From contig JBMOMX010000008.1 of NCBI GenBank assembly GCA_049323435.1, positions 40,609 to 104,608 of the forward strand: a stretch of DNA of 64,000 nucleotides, written 5' to 3'. The notes under the pieces are model-generated. The model had not been told where the DNA came from. It saw nothing but the letters and a program-made list of their open reading frames with translations, and did no database searches. The position numbers and the translations under genes were made by a program. The stretch's first letter is position 1; the number at the start of each line of letters is the position of its first letter. This document shows, piece by piece, positions 9,695-53,243 of the stretch. Source of the stretch: Pseudomonadota bacterium. Lineage in GTDB: Bacteria; Pseudomonadota; Alphaproteobacteria; UBA11222.

Positions 9695-10672
9695 TCAGAC
9701 CGGGGCATGTGCCTTTCTGGTCTTGTAGAGAGAAACCACGATACCTGCCGCGATCAGCGCAAGCGTCACGCCGAGCGAAACGCTGGCGGGAAATTTTTCC
9801 CAGCCCATCGCGCCTGCGATAAAACTTTTTGATCCGATGAAAATCAGCACGCAGGCCAGCGCCTGCTTCAGATATTTAAAGCGGTGAATAATCACGGCCA
9901 GCGCAAAATACAGCGCCCGCAAACCGAGAATGGCGAATATATTGCTGGTGTAAACAATGTAAGGATCAAGCGTGATGCTGAAAATGGCGGGAACGCTGTC
10001 CACCGCAAAAATCAGATCCACAATCTCTATCATAATCAGCGCCACCATCAGCGGCGTCATATAGGTGGCGCGCTTGCCGGTATTGGGATCCGTCAAATGC
10101 ACGGTGAATTTTTTTCCGTGCAATTCGTTGACCACACGCATATTGCGCTGCAGAAATTTAAGTATTGGATTGTCCGCGATATTGGGCATCGCATCTTCGA
10201 TCCACAGCATCTTGATGCCGGTGAAGATCAGAAACGCCGCAAAAATATAGAGAACCCAGCTAAACTCCGACACCAGCGCCGCGCCCAGGCCGATCATGAT
10301 CGCGCGCAGTACGATCACGCCAAGAATGCCCCAGAACAAGACGCGATGCTGGTATAGCGGCGGGATCGCCAAATAAGTGAAAATCAGCGAGATTACGAAT
10401 ATATTGTCTAGCGCCAGCGTTTTCTCGATAATGAAGCCGGTCAGATATTCCCTGCCGCTTTGCGCCCCAAGCTCAATCCAGACCCAGGCCCCGAATATCA
10501 GTGCGATGCAGATATAGAATGCGCTCATCCACAGGCTTTCGGATATGGAAATCTTGCGCTCCTTCCGGTGCAGTACCCCAAGGTCGAATGCCAGCAGCAG
10601 AATGACAATGCCCAAAAAAATAGCCCACATCCAAATGGGCTTTCCAATCACGACATCATAAAATAATTCCAT
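9695..10672 (-). CDS. TerC-family integral membrane protein
   Basis: Multiple TM segments and the conserved EKTLALDNIFVI motif. Confidence 0.85.
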   Translation of the reverse strand: MELFYDVVIGKPIWMWAIFLGIVILLLAFDLGVLHRKERKISISESLWMSAFYICIALIFGAWVWIELGAQSGREYLTGFIIEKTLALDNIFVISLIFTYLAIPPLYQHRVLFWGILGVIVLRAIMIGLGAALVSEFSWVLYIFAAFLIFTGIKMLWIEDAMPNIADNPILKFLQRNMRVVNELHGKKFTVHLTDPNTGKRATYMTPLMVALIMIEIVDLIFAVDSVPAIFSITLDPYIVYTSNIFAILGLRALYFALAVIIHRFKYLKQALACVLIFIGSKSFIAGAMGWEKFPASVSLGVTLALIAAGIVVSLYKTRKAHAPV

Positions 10673-11026
10673 ATAAAATCATTCCCGCAATTGCCATCAG
10701 AACGGTAATCCGGTCTGATAGCGCATGAATATTGCCCCATCCGCCGGATTGGCATTTATGATCAGAAACAGCTTCGCAATCCGAAATCCCGGCGCGCTCC
10801 CGAATTGAAGCAGCCGGTCGGTTACGAAGTGGTGATGAAAATCACAAAGTCAAGATCTGCCGCCGCTGGTTGCAGCAGGCATATTCAGTTTTCCTGTCGC
10901 CACACAGTCCGGCGGCATAACAGAACTTCATCAGACCGACACGGCTTTGTAACAGTCGCTAACTAGAAGTTAATTTGCGGTCATCGCGGAACCCCCCGGA
11001 CTTAACGATAGTTGGAGATTGCTCAA

Positions 11027-24652: not shown

Positions 24653-25450
24653 ATGAACCGCCTTGACGGAAAAATTGCATTGATTACTGGCGGCGCGCGC
24701 GGCCTTGGCGGGGCATCTGCAAAATTGATGGCTGCCGCCGGCGCCAGCGTGCTGATTACCGATCTGCTGGATGAAGCGGGCGCGGCCACAGTGGACGAAA
24801 TCAAGCGCGCGGGCGGAAAGGCGGCCTACCTGCACCATGATGTGGTAGAGGAAGATGCCTGGATCAAGGCGGTCAAATTCGCTACGGACAGTTTTGGCGG
24901 GCTGGATATTCTGGTCAATAATGCGGGCATTGCCGATGCGGGAAAGCCCATCGTGGACACCACATTCGAATCCTGGCGGCGCGTTATTTCCGTTGATCTG
25001 GACAGCCTGTTTCTAGGCATAAAATATGCGATCCCGGCGCTGGCCGCGCGCGCCCCCAAATGGCCGGGTGGCGGATCGATTATTAATATTTCCTCGATCA
25101 TGGGGCTGATCGCCATGCCCAACGCCGCCTCTTATATCGCAGCCAAGGGCGGCGTGCGGCTGTTGACCAAGGCAGCGGCGGTTGAACTGGCGCCCAGCAA
25201 AATTCGCGTTAATTCCGTGCATCCCGGTTTCACCGAAACCGATATGGTGAAAAACGCATTGAAGGATCTGGGCCGGGGTTCTGGCGCGGGCGAGAATATG
25301 GTGAAGGAAATGATCACCGCGCGCCATCCGATCGGCCGCATGGGCGTGCCGATGGATATTGCCAATGCGGTATGTTTCCTCGCCTCGGATGATTCATCTT
25401 TTATGACCGGATCGGAAGTGGTGGTCGATGGCGGTTATGTTGCGCAATAG
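24653..25450 (+). CDS. SDR-family oxidoreductase, paralog 1 of 3
   Basis: TGGARGLG Rossmann motif. NNAG. Catalytic S...YxxxK (ASYIAAKGG). GGAG RBS 8 nt upstream. Confidence 0.85.
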   Translation: MNRLDGKIALITGGARGLGGASAKLMAAAGASVLITDLLDEAGAATVDEIKRAGGKAAYLHHDVVEEDAWIKAVKFATDSFGGLDILVNNAGIADAGKPIVDTTFESWRRVISVDLDSLFLGIKYAIPALAARAPKWPGGGSIINISSIMGLIAMPNAASYIAAKGGVRLLTKAAAVELAPSKIRVNSVHPGFTETDMVKNALKDLGRGSGAGENMVKEMITARHPIGRMGVPMDIANAVCFLASDDSSFMTGSEVVVDGGYVAQ

Positions 25451-25459
25451 GAGGTCAAA

Positions 25460-26257
25460 ATGAACAGAGTGGATGGAAAAGTGGCGCTGATCAGCGGCGG
25501 CGCGCGCGGCATTGGCGGCATGTCGGCGCGCAAGCTGGCCGAGGCGGGCGCAAAAGTGGTGATCACCGATCTGCGCGAAGACGAGGCGCAGGTGACCCTG
25601 GCCGCGATCAAACAGGCGGGCGGCGAGGCGAAATTTTTCAAGCATGATGTGGCCATTGAAGAACAATGGGAAGCCGCGGTGAAGTTCGCGGTGCAAACCT
25701 ATGGCGGCGTGGATATTCTGCTGAACAATGCCGGTGTCGCGGGCGCGGCCAAGCCGCTGGAGGATTTAAGTCTTGATAGCTGGCGCCGCCTGATGTCGAT
25801 CAATCTGGATGGGGTGTTTCTGGGCATGAAACATGTCATTCCCAGCATGAAATCGCGCGCCCATCTATGGCCGGGCGGCGGATCGATCATCTCGATTTCA
25901 TCCATCATGGGTTTTATCGGCGGCGCGCGCGCCGTGGCCTATTGCGCCAGCAAGGGCGGCGTGCGGCTGATGACAAAGGCGGCGGCGATCGAACTGGCGC
26001 CCGCAAAAATCCGCGTCAATTCGGTGCATCCCGGCTTTATCAATACGCCGCTGCTGCGCGCGGGCGAACAGGCGATGAACCAGCGCCAGGAAGGCGGTTT
26101 TCAGAAATTCGTCGATGATGTGGTGTCGCGCCATCCGCTTGGGCGGCTGGGCGAGGAACAGGATATTGCGCACGCCGTGCGGTTTCTGGCGTCGGATGAT
26201 TCCGCCTTCATGACCGGCACGGAAGTGGTCGTTGATGGCGGCTATCTGGCGCAATAA
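25460..26257 (+). CDS. SDR-family oxidoreductase, paralog 2 of 3
   Basis: Same motif set (SGGARGIGG, NNAG, VAYCASKGG). About 55-65% identical to its neighbours by eye. Confidence 0.85.
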   Translation: MNRVDGKVALISGGARGIGGMSARKLAEAGAKVVITDLREDEAQVTLAAIKQAGGEAKFFKHDVAIEEQWEAAVKFAVQTYGGVDILLNNAGVAGAAKPLEDLSLDSWRRLMSINLDGVFLGMKHVIPSMKSRAHLWPGGGSIISISSIMGFIGGARAVAYCASKGGVRLMTKAAAIELAPAKIRVNSVHPGFINTPLLRAGEQAMNQRQEGGFQKFVDDVVSRHPLGRLGEEQDIAHAVRFLASDDSAFMTGTEVVVDGGYLAQ

Positions 26258-26290
26258 CAATAAGTATAATCAACAGGAAGGAACGCCGTA

Positions 26291-27082
26291 ATGAATAGAA
26301 TGGATGGCAAGATTGCCTTTATTTCCGGCGGCGCACGCGGGCTGGGGGCGGAAACCGCGCGCATGATGGCGGCTTGCGGCGCCAGTGTGGTGATCGGCGA
26401 CATATTGGATGATGCGGGCAAGAACACCGCGGCGCAGATCGTCAGCGATGGCGGCAAGGCGCTCTATACGCATCTGGATGTAACGCAGGAAGACAGCTGG
26501 CAGGCGGCCATCAAGGCAGGCGTCGATAAGTTTGGCGGGCTGGATGTGCTGGTGAATAATGCCGGTATTTTCTTTATGAAAAGCACCGAGGATATGACGC
26601 TGGCCGATTGGCATCGCATGAGCGCCGTCAATCTGGACGGCGTGTTTCTGGGCACCAAAACCGCGCTGCCGCATCTGAAGGCGCGCGCCGCCAAGGCCCC
26701 GGTGGGCGGGGCGATTATCAATCTGTCCTCGATCGCGGGCATTATCGGCATCGCCAATTTCACCGCCTATCATATGTCCAAGGGCGGGGTGCGGATTTAC
26801 ACCAAGGCCTGCGCCATGGAATTTGCGCCCTATCGCATCCGGGTCAATTCCATTCATCCCGGCCTGATCGAAACCGACATGGCTAAACAGGTGGTGAAGG
26901 AAATGAGCGGCGTGATGGGTTCCGACAATGCGGTGCGCGACATGTTTGTGCAAAGCCATCCGATCGGGCGCATTGGCGAACCCAAAGACATTGCCAATGG
27001 GATTGTGTTTCTGGCGTCGGACGACAGCGCCTTCATGACCGGATCGGAACTGGTCGTCGATGGCGGCTGGACCGCGCAATAA
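26291..27082 (+). CDS. SDR-family oxidoreductase, paralog 3 of 3
   Basis: SGGARGLGA, NNAG, TAYHMSKGG. Confidence 0.85.
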   Translation: MNRMDGKIAFISGGARGLGAETARMMAACGASVVIGDILDDAGKNTAAQIVSDGGKALYTHLDVTQEDSWQAAIKAGVDKFGGLDVLVNNAGIFFMKSTEDMTLADWHRMSAVNLDGVFLGTKTALPHLKARAAKAPVGGAIINLSSIAGIIGIANFTAYHMSKGGVRIYTKACAMEFAPYRIRVNSIHPGLIETDMAKQVVKEMSGVMGSDNAVRDMFVQSHPIGRIGEPKDIANGIVFLASDDSAFMTGSELVVDGGWTAQ

Positions 27083-27180
27083 GCTATCGACGTGCGTAGA
27101 TTGACGCATTGACTCACGCAATTCTCAGTGTCACCCCGGACTTGTTCCGGGGTCCAGGGCCGCACGTTAAGGCCTTACAA

Positions 27181-27471
27181 TCATGAAATCAGCGCCGGAT
27201 ATAAATCCCGCCACTGGGGGTTATGTGCCTCAATGACATTAATTTTCCACGCGCGAGGCCATTTCTTCATGCGTTTTTCTTGTCGAATGGCGTCGGCAAT
27301 ATTCGGCGCTTCCTCAAACCATACGAGAGTCTTGACGTTATAGTTGCTGGTGAACCCGCCGGTGACACCATTCTTGTGTTCGTAAACGCGCCGCACAATA
27401 TCATTGGTGACGCCGATATACAGGGTTCCATTTCTATGGCTCGACAGCATGTAAACGTAATAGCTTTTCAT
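27181..27471 (-). CDS. GIY-YIG nuclease family protein (UPF0213/YhbQ-like), cargo of the hairpin-TIR element
   Basis: MKSYYVYMLSSHRNGTLYIGVTNDIVRRVYEHK is a canonical GIY...YIG motif block. About 96 aa. Confidence 0.85.
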   Translation of the reverse strand: MKSYYVYMLSSHRNGTLYIGVTNDIVRRVYEHKNGVTGGFTSNYNVKTLVWFEEAPNIADAIRQEKRMKKWPRAWKINVIEAHNPQWRDLYPALIS

Positions 27472-27541
27472 TGCTGTACGTTCCGGCAAAGGCTTTATAC
27501 CCGTCAACCATTTTCGTATGCGGCCCCTGGACCCCCCTGAG

Positions 27542-28595
27542 TTCACGAATCAAGTGCAACACCCTACAAAGGTGTTGCAATGGGAACAAGCTATGGCCAG
27601 CTCGGCCTTAACGAGCGGATAGAGATTTATCGTTTGCATGCAGACGCTCACTCTCTTCGGTTTATCGCTAAAACGCTTGGCCGGGATGTTTCGACGATCA
27701 GCCGGGAACTGAAGCGTAACAGCAAAAATTCACACCGTTGGCGCGGCGGATACGACCCAGTCCGGGCGCAGGAGCTGACGCAACGCCGCCATGCGCGGGG
27801 ACGAACCTATAAGCTGGAACGCCAGCCGGAACTCCGCAAACAGGTCTTCGGCCACCTTGCAATGGGATGGTCGCCTGAACAGATCGCGGGCCGGCTGACG
27901 CTGGCGCAGGGTAAATCTGTAATCAGCCATGAGTCAATCTACCGTTATATTTATTGGCGCGTCTGGTCGTTCAACGAGAACCTGCATTTGCTGCTGCCAC
28001 GCCATAAACGCAGGCGCGGCAGGCAGCGGCGCAAGGACGGTGGAAGATGGGCAGAGCGCATCCACCGCCGGGTTTCCATTGCAAAACGGCCAAAAAGCGT
28101 CAATGCCCGCCAATGCATCGGCCACTGGGAGGCGGACACAATGGCGTTCTCAAAACAGCAACAGGCCGTGCTGGTCCTGATTGAGCGGCGTTCGCGCTTT
28201 ACCATCCTGCAACCACAAAAAGACAAATCGTCCGTATCAACTGTCAGCATAATGGGCGATGTTCTCAAAGCCTTTGCCCCGTCCAAACGCCGCTCCGTGA
28301 CCATGGATAATGGGCCGGAGTTCACCAAACATTATCTGCTGGCAGATCAGCTTGGCCTCAAAACATGGTTCTGCGACCCGCGCTCACCCTGGCAGAAAGG
28401 CGGCGTCGAAAACACCATCGGACGCTTGCGCCGTGTCTTGCCGAGAAAAACAGACCCAGCCCTGCTAAGCTTCGATGACTTCGTCCGTTTGAGTGAACAA
28501 CATAATACTACACCCAGAAAATGCCTCGGTTACTTGACCCCGAAAGAAGTCTTCCTTAATAGAAAGCCTCAACGTGTTGCACTTCAAACGTGAAT
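27542..28595. mobile_element. IS30-family insertion sequence
   Basis: Imperfect ~23-bp terminal IRs (TTCACGAATCAAGTGCAACACC ... CGTGTTGCACTTCAAACGTGAA, 18/23 matches). 1054 bp. The right IR overlaps the transposase stop, as is typical for IS30. Confidence 0.8.
27580..28593 (+). CDS. IS30-family DDE transposase
   Basis: N-terminal HTH region, IGHWEADTM (IS30 GHWEGD motif), rve-type DDE core. 337 aa. Confidence 0.9.
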   Translation: MGTSYGQLGLNERIEIYRLHADAHSLRFIAKTLGRDVSTISRELKRNSKNSHRWRGGYDPVRAQELTQRRHARGRTYKLERQPELRKQVFGHLAMGWSPEQIAGRLTLAQGKSVISHESIYRYIYWRVWSFNENLHLLLPRHKRRRGRQRRKDGGRWAERIHRRVSIAKRPKSVNARQCIGHWEADTMAFSKQQQAVLVLIERRSRFTILQPQKDKSSVSTVSIMGDVLKAFAPSKRRSVTMDNGPEFTKHYLLADQLGLKTWFCDPRSPWQKGGVENTIGRLRRVLPRKTDPALLSFDDFVRLSEQHNTTPRKCLGYLTPKEVFLNRKPQRVALQT

Positions 28596-28976
28596 CCACA
28601 CCCGCAACAAGTGCGGGGTGACACCGGGTGTGGCAAAGCTTCAAGCTAAAAATAATTTCAGTTCGTCCTCCGACGAAACCTAACCGGGCTTTATGACTCG
28701 TATGTCATTGCCATTGCATTCGGAACACACCCAATTTTCTCTGATTTAGCCTTTCGCGTCAGTCCCCCCAGCACCACTGTATAGTCTGGCCGCCCGGGCT
28801 CCACAAAAACGGCAAATATCTGCCGGCCATTTTCCTCCGAGTTTTGCCTCAAGCGCGCTGATGCGGGCTTTGAGGTCATCTACCTCCTCCGGAACTTGAT
28901 GAAGCCGCTTCCAGATAGGAATGCGATCCAAAGCACTGAGCATGTCCTCAACTACGCCTATAGACCCCTCCCCTCA

Positions 28977-39627: not shown

Positions 39628-40419
39628 ATGGCGCAATTTAAAACTCGGCCGTTTAGCGCCGAGATCCAGCTTATGAACCAGACAAATGGCGCAGCAGGGG
39701 CGGCGGGATCATTTAACGCCGTCCCGCCTGTGGTGCTGCGTCCGGCCGCTTTTTCCGGCCAGGCCGAAATATTGGCGGCCATCGCGGCGCTGCGTGAAGA
39801 GCTGTTCAACAGATCAGGCGATAGCGATACCGGCGCCGCAATGGCGATGGTCACCGATAAAATGCTGCAAACCCATAGCCGCGATATTGAAGACGCCAAA
39901 AAGCTGAAGGCGGAAATTGATTCGCTTTCTTCGGCGATTGACACGACAAAACGTGAAATCGCGTCCATGCGCTACAAGGACGCGAACCGTTATGAACGCA
40001 TAACCGATGTCACCCACGAACTGGATGAAGTTGTGTTCGACACCGAACGCGCGACAGAAAATATTCTGTCCAGTTGCGAAGAAATCGAACGCCATATCGA
40101 CCAGATTGAGTTGCAGGCCAGCTCACCCGATGAGCGCGCCGAAATTCAGGCGCTGGGACAGAAGGTTGTCAAGATTTACGAAGCCTGTAACTTTCAGGAT
40201 ATTACCGGCCAGCGCATAACCAAAGTCGTGAACACCCTGAAATTCATTGAACAGCGTCTTGATGTCATGATGTCTATCTGGGGCGGCCGGGAGGAATTTG
40301 ATTCCATCGAATTGCCGGAAGCAGAAGTCGCGCATGAAGATGATTTATTGCTGAACGGCCCCGCCCGCGAAGGCGGCGACAGTGTCAGCCAGGCCGATAT
40401 CGACGCGCTGTTCGATTAG
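39628..40419 (+). CDS. cheZ: CheZ-like chemotaxis phosphatase (distant CheZ homolog)
   Basis: NFQDITGQRITKVVNTLKFIEQRL matches the CheZ catalytic helix ([24 protein letters not shown], catalytic D/Q). C-terminal LLNGP...DIDALFD matches the CheZ CheY-binding tail. Confidence 0.6.
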   Translation: MAQFKTRPFSAEIQLMNQTNGAAGAAGSFNAVPPVVLRPAAFSGQAEILAAIAALREELFNRSGDSDTGAAMAMVTDKMLQTHSRDIEDAKKLKAEIDSLSSAIDTTKREIASMRYKDANRYERITDVTHELDEVVFDTERATENILSSCEEIERHIDQIELQASSPDERAEIQALGQKVVKIYEACNFQDITGQRITKVVNTLKFIEQRLDVMMSIWGGREEFDSIELPEAEVAHEDDLLLNGPAREGGDSVSQADIDALFD

Positions 40420-40457
40420 AGCGTTTTGTGATCAAGTTGAAGCAAGCCGCCTAATTT

Positions 40458-40687
40458 GTCATTGCTGTAAGAGTCAGACAATTCGCTGACAAGATTGCGG
40501 CGTTAATGGACTTAAAAAACGCTGTCACCCCGCACTTGTTGCGGGGTCCAGGGTTACAAACTCAGGCCTTCATTTGAGACTCCTGGACCCCGGAATAAAT
40601 CCGGGGTGACAATCTTTTTTAAGTCTTCGAACCTTCACTTAACCCAGGTTTCTTGTCAGCGAATTATCTGACTTCTACAGCAATGAC
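40458..40687. repeat. 230-bp nested palindromic element. 36-bp outer inverted repeats (GTCATTGCTGTAAGAGTCAGACAATTCGCTGACAAG / rc) enclose an 89-bp MITE.
   Basis: Outer arms 40458-40493 and 40652-40687 match 34/36 as reverse complements. Inner flanks ACTTAAAAAA / TTTTTTAAGT are also inverted. Confidence 0.75.
40523..40611. repeat. 89-bp MITE with hairpin TIRs (TGTCACCCCGCA...TCCGGGGTGACA) and internal GGTCCAGG/CCTGGACC repeat. Miniature derivative of the GIY-YIG element at 27.1 kb.
   Basis: Termini identical to the ends of the 27129-28623 element. Each end is itself a 8-9-bp-stem hairpin. Confidence 0.75.
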
Positions 40688-40744
40688 GCAGAAGATGGAG
40701 CGATTCCATCTGATCCGAATAGGGTCTAGGGACAAAACGGTCTT

Positions 40745-41572
40745 TCACCCGCCCTGCCATTTGGCCGGGCGTTTTTCCAGCCAGGCGGCAATGCCTTCCA
40801 CCGCGTCCGGGTGATTGACCGCTTCATCCAACAGCCGCTCTGATTCTTCCACCGCCGCATTCAGCGGGCGGTGCAGATCGGCGTAAAGCTGGCGCTTGGT
40901 CATACGCAAGCTGCCCGGCGAATTTTTCTCCGCCAGCATGGCGGCGTAATCGCGCACATGCGCCATCAATTCGCCTTCCGGCAGAACCTTGTTCAGCAGC
41001 CCCATCGCAAACGCTTCTTCGGCCAGAAACACCCGGCTGGACAGCAGAATATCCGCCGCATGGGTGACCCCAACCAGCCGCGGCAGCACCCACGAGAGAC
41101 CAAATTCCGCCGGATAGTTCAGCTTGCCATGCGCGGTGGTGAATTTCGCCCCCGCCGCCGCAAAACGCAGATCCGCAAAGCAGGCCAGCACCAGCCCTAC
41201 CCCCGCCACCGCGCCGTTAATGGCGGCGATCACCGGCTTGCTCAGCCCATAATGATAGGCAAAAGTGGCGTCAAATTCCGGCTGCACGCCAAAGCCTGGC
41301 CTGGCAATGTCATCGGTTGTGCCGCTGTCATAGCCGCCGCGTTCGGCATGGCCGCTGACCGCCGCCGTATCCGCGCCGGGGCAAAAGGCGCCGCCTTCCG
41401 GATCGCCGGTCACCACAATGACCCGCACCGCCGGATCGTTTTCCGCCAGGGCCAGCACATGGCGGTATTCCATATGCATGCGTCCGGTCCAGGCGTTCTT
41501 GCGCCGGGGCCGTGACAGCGTGAGTGTGGCGATCTGATTTTCAACGCCGTAGCGGATGGTCTTGAGTTCCAT
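40745..41572 (-). CDS. Enoyl-CoA hydratase/isomerase family protein
   Basis: Crotonase fold motifs (VVTGDPEGGAFCPGAD). Confidence 0.85.
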   Translation of the reverse strand: MELKTIRYGVENQIATLTLSRPRRKNAWTGRMHMEYRHVLALAENDPAVRVIVVTGDPEGGAFCPGADTAAVSGHAERGGYDSGTTDDIARPGFGVQPEFDATFAYHYGLSKPVIAAINGAVAGVGLVLACFADLRFAAAGAKFTTAHGKLNYPAEFGLSWVLPRLVGVTHAADILLSSRVFLAEEAFAMGLLNKVLPEGELMAHVRDYAAMLAEKNSPGSLRMTKRQLYADLHRPLNAAVEESERLLDEAVNHPDAVEGIAAWLEKRPAKWQGG

Positions 41573-47504: not shown

Positions 47505-47529
47505 TGTCACCCCGCACTTGTTGCGGGGT
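47505..47529. repeat. Solo 25-bp REP-like hairpin (TGTCACCCCGCA-CTTGT-TGCGGGGT), the minimal unit of the MITE family
   Basis: Identical to the MITE terminal hairpin. Sits 16 bp after the cysK stop. Confidence 0.7.
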
Positions 47530-47558
47530 AATTAACTGGAGCATAATGATCTCGGATT

Positions 47559-47678
47559 GACCCAACCCCCTCCCTGTCCCTCCCCCTTTCAGGGGGAGGG
47601 AACGCAAGATGGAACGCCTCCCTCCCCCTGAAAGGGGGCCTGAAGATGCAGGTACCAATAAGGGTTGGGGTGGGGGTC
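47559..47678. repeat. Complex C-run/G-run palindromic element with three interlocking hairpins
   Basis: CCCTCCCCC-TTTCA-GGGGGAGGG (47578-47600, perfect 9-bp stem). GGGGGAGGGA ... TCCCTCCCCC (47592-47628, 10-bp stem). CCCCC-TGAAA-GGGGG (47624-47638). Flanked by CCCAACCCCCTCCC and GGGTTGGGGTGGGGG. Confidence 0.7.
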
Positions 47679-47757
47679 CATTTTGCGAAAAATGGGGCCG
47701 GTAAATTGATCGATCGAATAGCATTACGCACCGGACTATGCGTAGAGGTCTTTCAAT

Positions 47758-48564
47758 ATGAGCCAACCACTCACCGAAACCCAGATCGAACGTTACGCCC
47801 GCCATATCATGCTGCCGGAGGTGGGCGGCGCGGGCCAGGCGAAACTGCTGGCGTCGCGCGTGCTGCTGGTTGGCGCGGGCGGGCTGGGTTCGCCGCTGGC
47901 TTTGTATCTGGCGGCGGCGGGGGTGGGAACCATCGGCATCGTGGATGATGATGTGGTGTCGCTGTCCAATCTGCAACGCCAGATCGCGCACAAGACCCGC
48001 GACATTGGCAGGCCCAAAACCCAAAGTGCTGCCGAAAGCATTGCGGACATCAATCCGGATGTGAAAATTGCGCAGCATCCGGTCCGGCTGAATGCCGGAA
48101 ATGTCCGTGAACTGATCAAAGACTATGATCTGGTGGCCGATGGCTGCGATAATTTCGCCACCAAATTTCTGCTTAATGACGCCTGCTATCTGCTGCAAAA
48201 GCCGCTGGTCGCAGCAGCCCTTGGGCGCTTTGAAGGCCAGCTTTCCACCTTCCGCGCTTATGAGGGGGAAAAGCCCTGCTATCGCTGTATCTTCCCCTCG
48301 CCGCCGCCCGCAGACAGCATGCCCAATTGCGCGGAAGTGGGCACGCTGGGCCTGGTTGCGGGGGTGATGGGCACGTTACAGGGCATCGAAGTGGTCAAGG
48401 AACTGCTCGGCATCGGAACCAGCATGACCGGGCAGTTGCTGATCTATGACGCGCTCGACACCACCTTCCGCAAAATCAAGGTGCGGCGCGACCCGCAATG
48501 CCGCCTGTGCGGGCCGCAACCGGCGATCACATCGCTGGATGCGGCGGAATATGCGCCGGGATAG
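47758..48564 (+). CDS. moeB: Molybdopterin-synthase adenylyltransferase / ThiF-MoeB family E1-like enzyme
   Basis: ERYARHIMLPEVGGAGQAKL. Rossmann GAGGLGS. C-terminal CxxC pair (CYRC ... CRLC). Confidence 0.85.
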   Translation: MSQPLTETQIERYARHIMLPEVGGAGQAKLLASRVLLVGAGGLGSPLALYLAAAGVGTIGIVDDDVVSLSNLQRQIAHKTRDIGRPKTQSAAESIADINPDVKIAQHPVRLNAGNVRELIKDYDLVADGCDNFATKFLLNDACYLLQKPLVAAALGRFEGQLSTFRAYEGEKPCYRCIFPSPPPADSMPNCAEVGTLGLVAGVMGTLQGIEVVKELLGIGTSMTGQLLIYDALDTTFRKIKVRRDPQCRLCGPQPAITSLDAAEYAPG

Positions 48565-48600
48565 GCGGAATCTTATTTTGACTTAATCATTATCCCATAG

Positions 48601-48696
48601 CGTCATTGCGAGCGGAGCGAAGCAATCCAGAGTCAAACAAACAGGCTTTACCGTGTGGCTCTGGATTGCCGCGTCGCTTCGCTCCTCGCAATGACG
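48601..48696. repeat. 96-bp near-perfect palindrome (32/38-bp arms, 26-nt loop) between convergent moeB and gst
   Basis: CGTCATTGCGAGCGGAGCGAAGCAATCCAGAG ... CTCTGGATTGCCGCGTCGCTTCGCTCCTCGCAATGACG. Termini GTCATTGC/GCAATGAC are shared with the 40458-40687 element. Confidence 0.75.
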
Positions 48697-48733
48697 AATT
48701 AAGGGCGGTGATTCAATCCAACCTCAACAAACT

Positions 48734-49369
48734 CTATGCCTGCGCCTGCGCCAGGGTCTTTTTCCATGCGGGCAATGCTTGCAGCTCCGCCAGCCAGCGG
48801 CGGATTTCCCCATAGGGCGCGAGCGGAATTTTCGCTGCCTCCGCATGCACGAGATCGCCGCCAAGCGCAAAATCGGCCACGGTAAGTTTATCACCCGCCA
48901 CATATCTGGTTTTCGCAAGTTGCGCGTCCAGCACTTTGGCGCTGCGGTTAAACTGCTCTTCGGCCTTGGCGAGTGCGGCCTTGTCCGGCTCCATGATGCC
49001 CAGCACCTGCGGTTTGGCCACATTCTCGAAGGTGAATGAGCCGGTATGCGGATCCCAATGCGCGAGATCCCAGAACTGCCATCGGGTTACATCGAGGCGC
49101 GCGCGCTCGTCTTTCGGCAACAGACCGCTTTCGGGTTTTTGCAGCGCCAGATATTGCAGAATGGCGTTCGATTCCCACACCACATAATCGCCATCCTTCA
49201 GGGTGGGCATCCGCATATTGGGATTGATGGCCGCATATTCCGGTTTTTGAAAATCACCCCTGCGCGGATCAAGCACGCGCAGCGTGTAATCCACGTCGGC
49301 ATGATTTGCCGTCAGCAGCACCTTGAAAGCGCGCGGGCTCAGCGGAAATGCGAAAATTTCAATCGCCAT
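48734..49369 (-). CDS. Glutathione S-transferase
   Basis: N-terminal thioredoxin-like GST domain (SPRAFKVLL..., VVWESNAILQYL) and C-terminal helical domain. Confidence 0.85.
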   Translation of the reverse strand: MAIEIFAFPLSPRAFKVLLTANHADVDYTLRVLDPRRGDFQKPEYAAINPNMRMPTLKDGDYVVWESNAILQYLALQKPESGLLPKDERARLDVTRWQFWDLAHWDPHTGSFTFENVAKPQVLGIMEPDKAALAKAEEQFNRSAKVLDAQLAKTRYVAGDKLTVADFALGGDLVHAEAAKIPLAPYGEIRRWLAELQALPAWKKTLAQAQA

Positions 49370-53111: not shown

Positions 53112-53130
53112 AGCGCTTTCACAGGGTCAC

Positions 53131-53243
53131 GCGGCATCACACCGGATTTGGAACGGCCGTGCGGCATTACGCCGCGCTTGCAGTTAGCGCGCGGCATTAC
53201 GCCGCGCTTGCAGTTAGCGCGCGGCATTACGCCGCGCTTGGGG
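53131..53243. repeat. Tandem array of ~4 x 30-bp units (GCGGCATTACGCCGCGCTTGCAGTTAGCGC), each with a GCGGC-N5-GCCGC hairpin
   Basis: Perfect copies at 53161-53190 and 53191-53220. Partial third copy at 53221-53243 contains the pckA stop codon. Degenerate leading copy at 53131-53160. Confidence 0.8.

Follow-up and report, generated by a model that had tools for sequence, protein, structure and literature searches.

The window analysed here is a 64,000-nucleotide stretch of contig JBMOMX010000008.1, from an uncultured alphaproteobacterium, and it carries a 310-nt palindrome at positions 40420-40729, between a CheZ gene and an enoyl-CoA hydratase gene. We interpret this palindrome, with good if incomplete confidence, as a nest of three layers of non-autonomous mobile DNA and not as one designed structure. 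At the centre lies a pair of hairpins of the repetitive extragenic palindromic (REP) type, here called REP-A. The pair is enclosed by a 214-bp core with the features of a MITE (miniature inverted-repeat transposable element) of an IS481-like insertion sequence (IS), and the core by a shell, which includes the feet of a second hairpin type (REP-B). In the mechanism we propose, an IS481-like transposase would have mobilised the 214-bp core into a REP-B foot, and a shell-type element would have arrived, carrying its contents, at the TA that lies within the stop codon of CheZ. The giant hairpin would then exist because palindromes are nested concentrically inside palindromes. A preliminary description of this DNA had considered two readings. 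The first, one palindromic element inside another, is retained as to its nested origin, with three layers in place of two. The second, a single composite of ~230 bp, agrees with the finding that a 230-bp unit is copied whole, whereas the unit that varies between strains is 310 bp long.

Architecture and folding of the palindrome

The outer arms, GTCATTGCTGTAAGAGTCAGACAATTCGCTGACAAG at 40458-40493 and its reverse complement at 40652-40687, form the 36-bp inverted repeat already reported; with three mismatches between them, they agree in 33/36 positions rather than 34/36. The two arm matches were found in none of 100 dinucleotide shuffles of the window, and the arms are single copy within these 64 kb. 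Between the arms lies a second inverted pair, also correctly described, which is composed of ACTTAAAAAA (40510-40519) and TTTTTTAAGT (40615-40624). The central 89 bp (40523-40611) consist of two 30-nt hairpin units in inverted orientation with a 29-nt spacer between them.

The palindrome is wider than had been noted. A repeat search returned 90-nt arms (40417-40506 and 40639-40728) with 71% complementarity, and by global self-alignment the 310 nt from 40420 to 40729 are a single imperfect palindrome. The calculated folding energy of this segment is -82.7 kcal/mol as DNA (z -11.5) and -148 kcal/mol as RNA (z -12.7 for one strand and -13.5 for the other). In either single-stranded form, DNA or RNA, the long hairpin covers 40457-40688. 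The outermost ~38 nt on each side form local folds and do not pair with each other.

Filled and empty alleles

The CheZ gene (PF04344) ends at 40419, and the convergent enoyl-CoA hydratase gene (PF00378), on the minus strand, ends at 40745; the position between these two genes had been identified correctly. To compare alleles, we used contigs that encode an identical hydratase protein, which represent near-identical strains from one metagenome series (18 places listed). The spacer between the two genes is 25 bp long in about ten of the 18 places, and in the other eight it is the 325-bp spacer of the window, or the contig breaks off within that spacer. The empty allele reads gatTAG CCGCATCTGC GGACAAAACGG, and the filled allele reads gatTAG, the 310 bp of 40420-40729 and GGACAAAACGG. 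Thus, 310 bp substitute for 10 bp of the empty allele. The flanks of one empty contig (L007) are 99.8-99.9% identical to the window, and the identical empty allele occurs in L002, a strain of greater divergence (91.7% on one side). The left flanking TA (40417-40418) is part of the CheZ stop codon TAG (40417-40419) and is present in both empty and filled alleles; the right flanking TA (40727-40728) is read in the sequence and in the alleles.

The closest genomes in the GTDB collection are alphaproteobacterial metagenome-assembled genomes (MAGs) with a CheZ identity of only 74-80%. Five of the six closest relatives have the same convergent pair with spacers of 0-35 bp and without the element. 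The sixth (L032, positions 2190-2317; MAG Betzabe_MAG060; 79% CheZ identity) contains a shell-plus-hairpin insertion of the GTCATTACCCGGCTTGTCCGGGTAATCC type, inside which the contig ends. This insertion, whose hairpin type differs, starts at the very TA in the stop codon of CheZ that was used in the window, and it is an independent hit on the same site. Since near-identical strains are empty and related species have short spacers, the 310-bp block was gained in one lineage of this uncultured alphaproteobacterium, and 10 bp of the old spacer were lost. The GTDB representative contigs gave no match to a 22-mer from the arm; therefore, the species is not one of the GTDB representatives that carry this element.

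The 230-bp repeat family

A search for the arm with and without the central hairpins, which the preliminary description had proposed as a check, recovered a repeat family. A 20-mer of the arm matches 19 stretches in JGI metagenome contigs, many of them at contig ends, where repeats are expected to fall. The two weakest matches (L013 and L022) share the 20-mer only, in unrelated AT-rich sequence, and were treated as chance. By BLAST and alignment, the 230-bp unit (40458-40688) occurs with 88-97% identity at six or more other loci (L014, L017/19/21, L018/26, L024/28, L027 and L015+L020), and the family counted at this identity occupies at least seven distinct loci. All full copies contain the central hairpin pair and show the same asymmetry, with 29 nt between arm and hairpin on one side and 40 nt on the other. 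Because every full copy keeps both features, the composite spreads as one unit from one master. Arms without the central pair were not found among these matches, except where they bound a full insertion sequence.

An IS481-like insertion sequence and its MITE

In three contigs, a gene instead of the hairpin pair follows the arm. One of them (L023, reverse complement of 67-1147) contains a complete 1081-bp element with one open reading frame (ORF) of 327 aa. The ends of this IS are TGTAAGAG...CTCTTACA, also given as TGTAAGAGTCAGATAATTCGCTGACAAGA...TCTTGTCAGCGAATTACATGACTCTTACA (TGTAAG...CTTACA). Two further contigs (L153 and L154) contain complete copies with the same ends. The IS481 family is described in ISfinder as having one DDE (rve) ORF, a length of about 1 kb and the ends TGT...ACA, features that the 1081-bp element shares. 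The best NCBIfam match of the 327-aa ORF is by far the IS481 family (NF033577, E 1.4e-57), and Pfam assigns rve/rve_3. The nearest annotated plasmid genes, at ~33% identity, are all named "IS481 family transposase". Relatives of the ORF number in the thousands and are almost all located on contigs of ~1.1 kb, which is the signature of a multicopy IS.

The ends of this IS recur inside the palindrome. The left terminal inverted repeat (40466-40495, plus strand) matches the left terminal repeat (IRL) of the L023 element in 29/30 positions, and the right terminal inverted repeat (40650-40679, minus strand) matches its right terminal repeat (IRR) in 28/30. Between them, the left internal segment (40496-40522, plus strand; A6 run at 40514-40519) and the right internal segment (40612-40649, plus strand; T6 run at 40615-40620) are kept in all copies, and the left one is unlike the IS interior. 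The 214 bp from 40466 to 40679 (TGTA...TACA) contain no ORF of note. Because the terminal 30 nt match the IS ends, we identify this core from its sequence as a MITE of the 1081-bp element with IS481-like terminal inverted repeats. The IS transposase would move it in trans. An origin of the MITE from the IS by internal deletion was rejected, since only the 30-nt ends match and beyond them the similarity between the two interiors is not above that of shuffles.

Insertion into the foot of a REP-B hairpin

The 8 nt outside each end of the core belong to a different hairpin. The REP-B hairpin has the form GTC-ATTGC-loop-GCAAT-CCAG with GAGCG... as its loop, and it occurs at 48601-48696, a segment that starts with GTCATTGC and ends with GCAATGAC. 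In 285 kb of sequence from the population, only two sequences come next after a shell-linked GTCATYGC, namely GAGCG (REP-B) and TGTARAAG (the IS or MITE end). In this context, GTCATTGC at 40458-40465 (plus strand) corresponds to the tag and 5' stem foot of a host REP-B hairpin, and GCAATGAC at 40680-40687 (minus strand) to the mirror foot. The 36-nt arm is thus composed of 8 nt of host hairpin foot and 28 nt of IS end. The pair GTCATTGC...GCAATGAC had been proposed as the shared termini of an independent MITE family. It is common to 48601-48696, as reported, because the octamers are the feet of host REP-B hairpins and not because they are MITE ends.

The junctions are of two kinds. At L018 and L024/28, the sequence reads GTC ATTGC, core, ATTGC GAG, a direct 5-bp ATTGC repeat, and by its sequence it appears as a simple insertion into the REP-B foot with a 5-bp duplication. 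In the copy read from L015+L020, a normal REP-A hairpin pair is restored once the core and one CAGGGC are taken out. The IS of L023 is flanked by CTCGCAAT and ATTGCGAG. In most copies, including that of the window, and around the full-length IS of L153, the REP-B interior is gone and the two flanks are in inverted orientation (GTC ATTGC, insert, GCAAT GAC). These inverted flanks may have arisen when a host element was hit twice, once in each of its symmetric feet, and the two inserted copies then recombined with each other. Taken together, the junctions indicate that the IS and the MITE land just after GTCATTGC in the REP-B foot with high specificity.

The outer shell and a sister element

The left shell module (GAGCGTTTTGTGATCAAGTTGAAGC...) occupies 40419-40457 on the plus strand (nhmmer E 4e-7) and is absent in the empty alleles; the right module occupies 40688-40726 on the minus strand (nhmmer E 2.5e-5). 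Measured from the outer end to GTCA, shell modules have a fixed length of 39 +/- 1 nt at no fewer than 20 element ends. They are homologous (GAGCGTTTTGTGATCAGGTTGAATC...) yet only about half identical between copies. Nine complete elements are flanked by TA on both sides, including the window element and a second element at 48561-48739; L153 has no TA on the left. In its anatomy, the shell with its hairpin feet (40419-40465 plus 40680-40726) is a mostly TA-flanked element of the same kind as 48561-48739. The combination of modules varies from copy to copy while the 230-bp interior keeps an identity of 88-97%, which indicates that the shells are older and were already in place when the interior spread into them. 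At the CheZ locus, shell and contents are jointly absent in the empty strains, and the shell would be the unit that arrived there.

Short palindromes built of shell modules also stand alone. Those at L011 3340-3398 and L014 ~10625-10680 are ~59 bp long and consist of two right-shell modules (GACCCTATTCGGATCAGATGGAATCGC) with no hairpins. The outer 27 nt of the right module in the window (40700-40726) match L011 3340-3398 at 100% and correspond to one half of that palindrome.

The sister element at 48561-48739 is of the B type, in the order shell, REP-B hairpin pair, shell, and is the unoccupied form of the host of the nest. It sits between a ThiF-like gene and a glutathione S-transferase (GST) gene. 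At this site, strains L146/L148 read GGG TTAA GCC without the element; the two genes overlap at TTAA and the GST is 2 aa shorter. The window reads GGG A TA, element, TA T GCCTGC GCC. A different repeat occupies the site in L145 (GCA_964648535.1), which gives three alleles at one site.

The central REP-A hairpins

The first central hairpin (40523-40552, plus strand) reads TGTC ACCCCGCA CTTGT TGCGGGGT CCAGG, and the second (40582-40611, minus strand) is a stem variant. They are separated by the 29-nt spacer GTTACAAACTCAGGCCTTCATTTGAGACT (40553-40581), whose core AAACTCAGGC.. is similar in REP-B pairs. The REP-A stems show a compensatory change, CCCCGCA/TGCGGGG in one form and CCCCGGA/TCCGGGG in the other. 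In general form, REP-A has a (C/T)GTC tag, an 8-bp stem that begins with A and ends with T, a 5-nt loop and a CCA tail. REP-A singlets are located at 27129, 28599 (minus strand) and 47505.

The search pattern for Ssn-related motifs (SRMs), HGTCWYN(0-2)YYVSBRHN(0-5)WNVSBRGN(0-2)RNCYNB (PMC11893778), has three hits in the window against 0.21 expected, namely the two hairpins of the centre and the one at 27129. This strict pattern is not matched by the REP-B feet. From their sequence, the central hairpins can be assigned to the class of SRMs or CGTC-tagged REPs, which is characterised by a GTC tag, an A..T stem of 8-9 bp, a loop of 4-5 nt and a CCA tail. Thus the central 89 bp, which the preliminary description had named a MITE, are present as reported and are a head-to-head pair of motifs of this class. 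CGTC-tagged REPs form head-to-head dimers, have alpha-Proteobacteria as their main hosts, and no dedicated transposase has been reported for them (Di Nocera et al. 2013, PMC3733652).

One of the singlets has a setting of its own. At 47505-47680, REP-A lies directly after a cysK-like gene and is followed by palindromes of the CCCTCCCCCTTTCAGGGGGAGGG type, a family that is also present in L131 and L145.

A GIY-YIG gene associated with REP-A

A 96-aa, single-domain, Ssn-like GIY-YIG protein (PF01541, 59 bits) is encoded at 27184-27471 on the minus strand, ~13 kb from the central hairpins. The gene lies between the REP-A at 27129 and a second REP-A, in the minus orientation, that is split into CCTGGACCCC and ACCCGCAACAAGTGCGGGGTGACA by an IS30-family element (~27536-28599; transposase 27580-28593, NF033563, 236 bits). 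The orthologous locus in another MAG (L127) is intact, with the order shell module, REP-A(+), gene, REP-A(-). The paralogous loci in L116 and L125 have REP-A on both sides in inverted orientation. A distant homologue from Ignavibacteria (L133) lies between GTCA-tagged hairpins of its own. Tyr7, Tyr18 and Glu65 correspond, when numbering is shifted by +1, to Y6, Y17 and E64, the residues mutated in SsnA of Neisseria. A comparison of the protein with the PDB gave weak UPF0213 matches only. Chenal et al. 2025 (PMC11893778) showed that single-domain GIY-YIG proteins of ~94 aa (Ssn), whose genes lie between such hairpins, cleave single-stranded DNA at a point a few nucleotides upstream of the hairpins. 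The product of the gene at 27184-27471 is likely the cognate nuclease of the REP-A hairpins, and it may bind or cut the central hairpins as single-stranded DNA. The link between GIY-YIG genes and CGTC-tagged REPs was already published in 2025 (PMC11893778) and is not new.

A more speculative connection concerns the shells. The units composed of a shell and a hairpin pair may be miniature derivatives of elements that carry an Ssn-type GIY-YIG gene enclosed by such hairpins and modules, as in L127, and may still be moving, although we regard this as doubtful. Shell-like modules flank two to three of the four ssn loci, and both 40419-40726 and 48561-48739 are polymorphic among strains that are 99.7-99.9% identical. 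If this connection were true, CGTC-tagged REPs would be non-autonomous partners of a GIY-YIG-based mobile element, and the alleles would be the first population-level evidence that CGTC-type units are gained. Two narrower ideas were set aside. The spacer of the hairpin pair as a clean deletion derivative of the ssn flanks gave 17-18 identities of 29-31, equal to the best shuffles, and the shell boundary as an Ssn cut site disagrees with Neisseria SsnA, which cuts ~3 nt upstream of the motif and not 39 nt.

Three further observations were made in the window. The IS30-family element represents a second IS family that uses REP-A hairpins as a target. At 24653-27082, beside the ssn locus, there are three tandem paralogous short-chain dehydrogenase genes with a spacing of ~807-831 bp and segments that are 68-78% identical; an exact protein look-up of the adjoining dehydrogenase gave no record. 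At 53130-53240, a 30-bp sequence, CGCGGCATTACGCCGCGCTTGCAGTTAG, is repeated in tandem in three to four copies.

Weighing the explanations

Several points weigh against the three-layer nest. First, neither shell junction is clean: 10 bp were lost at the CheZ locus, and at 48561-48739 there are two base changes and an extra GCCTGC. The uneven junctions may reflect the action of a TA-specific transposase with subsequent alterations, or else homologous recombination that exchanged alleles with a lineage in which the insertion is older. Second, neither new pairs nor an autonomous partner with shell-like ends were found with the nhmmer shell profile in 1.56 Mb, and a donor that combines the two shell modules of the window did not turn up either. 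Third, the MITE copy in the window has no direct target duplication; its flanks are ATTGC...GCAAT, so that a simple insertion needs an extra step. Finally, the IS481 score of the 327-aa ORF is 195 bits, below the curated NCBIfam cut-off of 224, and the IS itself is outside the window, linked to it by the sample series and the 29/30 end match only.

One alternative places the mobile boundary 8 nt further out. The 230-bp unit, including GTCATTGC...GCAATGAC, would itself be mobile, with terminal repeats of 36-38 nt, and would insert into the centre of shell-only palindromes. At least six MITE copies and the full IS of L153 are indeed bordered by GTCATTGC to the left and by GCAATGAC to the right, and short shell-only palindromes do exist (L011 3340-3398 and L014). 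However, in the IS of L023 and in the cores of L018, L024/28, L025 and L015/L020, one or both octamers are missing and the flanking sequence abuts exactly TGTA/TACA. Moreover, GTCATTGC also heads REP-B hairpins that have no IS, none of the shell-only targets in the sequences compared had GTCATTGC next to it, and the boundary at TGTA/TACA is the one that agrees with the TGT...ACA ends of IS481. We therefore consider this alternative unlikely.

We hold it equally improbable that the palindrome is a structure selected by the host as a bidirectional terminator, a stabiliser in the 3' untranslated region or a stable non-coding RNA gene. The element is located exactly between two convergent stop codons, its hairpin is very stable on both strands, the central pair of hairpins has the A6 and T6 runs on its two sides and compensatory changes occur in the REP stems, all of which would suit such a role. 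On the other hand, a consensus terminator scan found no intrinsic terminator (a GC-rich stem-loop with a T run within 0-2 nt) in 40420-40729, where the T run begins 3 nt past the long stem and 8 nt past the short stem, and the Rfam covariance models gave no match at gathering score in the whole window. Since half of the strains are without the element, as are five of the six closest relatives, a terminator or RNA-stabilising role is dispensable. Copies also occur in varied contexts with IS ends, as in mobile DNA. An effect on the host, as a 3'-end hairpin or terminator for the two convergent genes, is possible as a secondary consequence, and a host role is compatible with the three-layer nest only as such a side effect.

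The central inverted REP doublet, which forms a hairpin, and the flanking A and T runs, which resemble those of some Pseudomonas REPINs (PMC3337134), recall a REP doublet forming a hairpin (REPIN) that is moved by a REP-associated tyrosine transposase (RAYT); the arms would then be a second REPIN hit by the first. This reading has very little probability. The tag is (C/T)GTC and not GTAG, and CGTC-type REPs are reported to be unlinked to RAYTs (PMC3733652). The gene between REP-A hairpins encodes a predicted GIY-YIG nuclease and not a RAYT, the arms are ends of a DDE-type IS, and a tblastn search of 276 kb with an E. coli RayT probe gave no match, which is a weak negative. Lastly, a local duplication-inversion with no repeat family behind it, the case that the preliminary description had set against a repeat family, would fit the single copy of the arms in the window and can be dismissed, since the arms are present in many copies at unrelated loci and their ends match an IS.

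Comparison with known systems

Each layer of the nest is of a kind that has been described, be it an IS-derived MITE, a REP-targeting IS, a CGTC-tagged REP or SRM, or a mosaic cluster of repeats, and the nest, though its lineage is uncultured, is ordinary selfish DNA of known kinds. With it, an IS481-type element and its MITE join the insertion sequences whose target is one exact position within a repeated hairpin. The nest also shows SRM-like hairpins organised in pairs within fixed-length, mostly TA-flanked units, with the gene for their likely cognate GIY-YIG nuclease nearby. Filled and empty alleles at two loci in one population bear on the spread of CGTC-type REP units, a question that neither the 2013 nor the 2025 paper settled. 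In practical terms, such nests break short-read assemblies, as many copies end contigs, and create spurious ORFs in annotation.

As in other IS-derived MITEs, the 214-bp core is non-coding, has the terminal repeats of an IS and an unrelated interior, and occurs in multiple copies. It differs from the usual ones in its IS481-like partner, in its cargo of a REP pair and in the mostly invisible direct target duplication. The shell can be compared with a TA-duplicating MITE of the Correia or IS630 type: TA is found on both sides in the nine complete elements, and the two comparisons of empty and filled sites are not clean. Correia elements and RUP are flanked by TA.

With respect to the target, the IS481-like element behaves as the REP-targeting insertion sequences IS1397, ISKpn1, ISPsy8 and ISPpu9/10 (PMC1525189), which use one exact position in a repeated extragenic hairpin. 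The families listed for this behaviour are IS3, IS110, IS4, IS256 and IS5, and IS481 is not listed (Tobes and Pareja 2006, PMC1525189). Unlike in those cases, a MITE derivative shares the target of the IS here.

The central hairpins share with the CGTC-tagged REPs of PMC3733652, which include Rickettsia RPE and Neisseria dRS3, the (C/T)GTC tag, the 8-bp A..T stem, the 5-nt loop, the CCA tail, the arrangement in dimers, the location between convergent genes and an alphaproteobacterial host; that paper describes neither 39-nt flanking modules nor IS481-type insertions in the feet. They also resemble the SRMs of SsnA systems (PMC11893778), which have a GTC tag, an 8-bp stem and a CCAG tail and lie in the order motif, gene, motif around a GIY-YIG gene of ~95 aa. 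The system in the window, with its putative nuclease, differs in its alphaproteobacterial lineage, in the stem sequence and in the head-to-head pairs inside elements with fixed-length ends, one of which is polymorphic between strains. With REPIN/RAYT systems and bacterial interspersed mosaic elements (BIMEs; PMC3116915), it has in common the inverted REP doublet, the coexistence of singlets and doublets, a single resident gene for a predicted nuclease with the repeats on its flanks, and A/T runs at the ends. It differs from REPIN/RAYT (Bertels and Rainey 2011, PMC3116915) in that there is no GTAG tag and the associated gene encodes a GIY-YIG protein instead of an HUH tyrosine transposase.

Finally, small repeats that insert into one another are known from Neisseria (NIME and Correia) and from the mosaic clusters of pneumococcal BOX, RUP and SPRITE (PMC10969869). 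The nest shares this property with them and differs in sequence and host; here, the nesting is strictly concentric and yields one hairpin of 230-310 nt.

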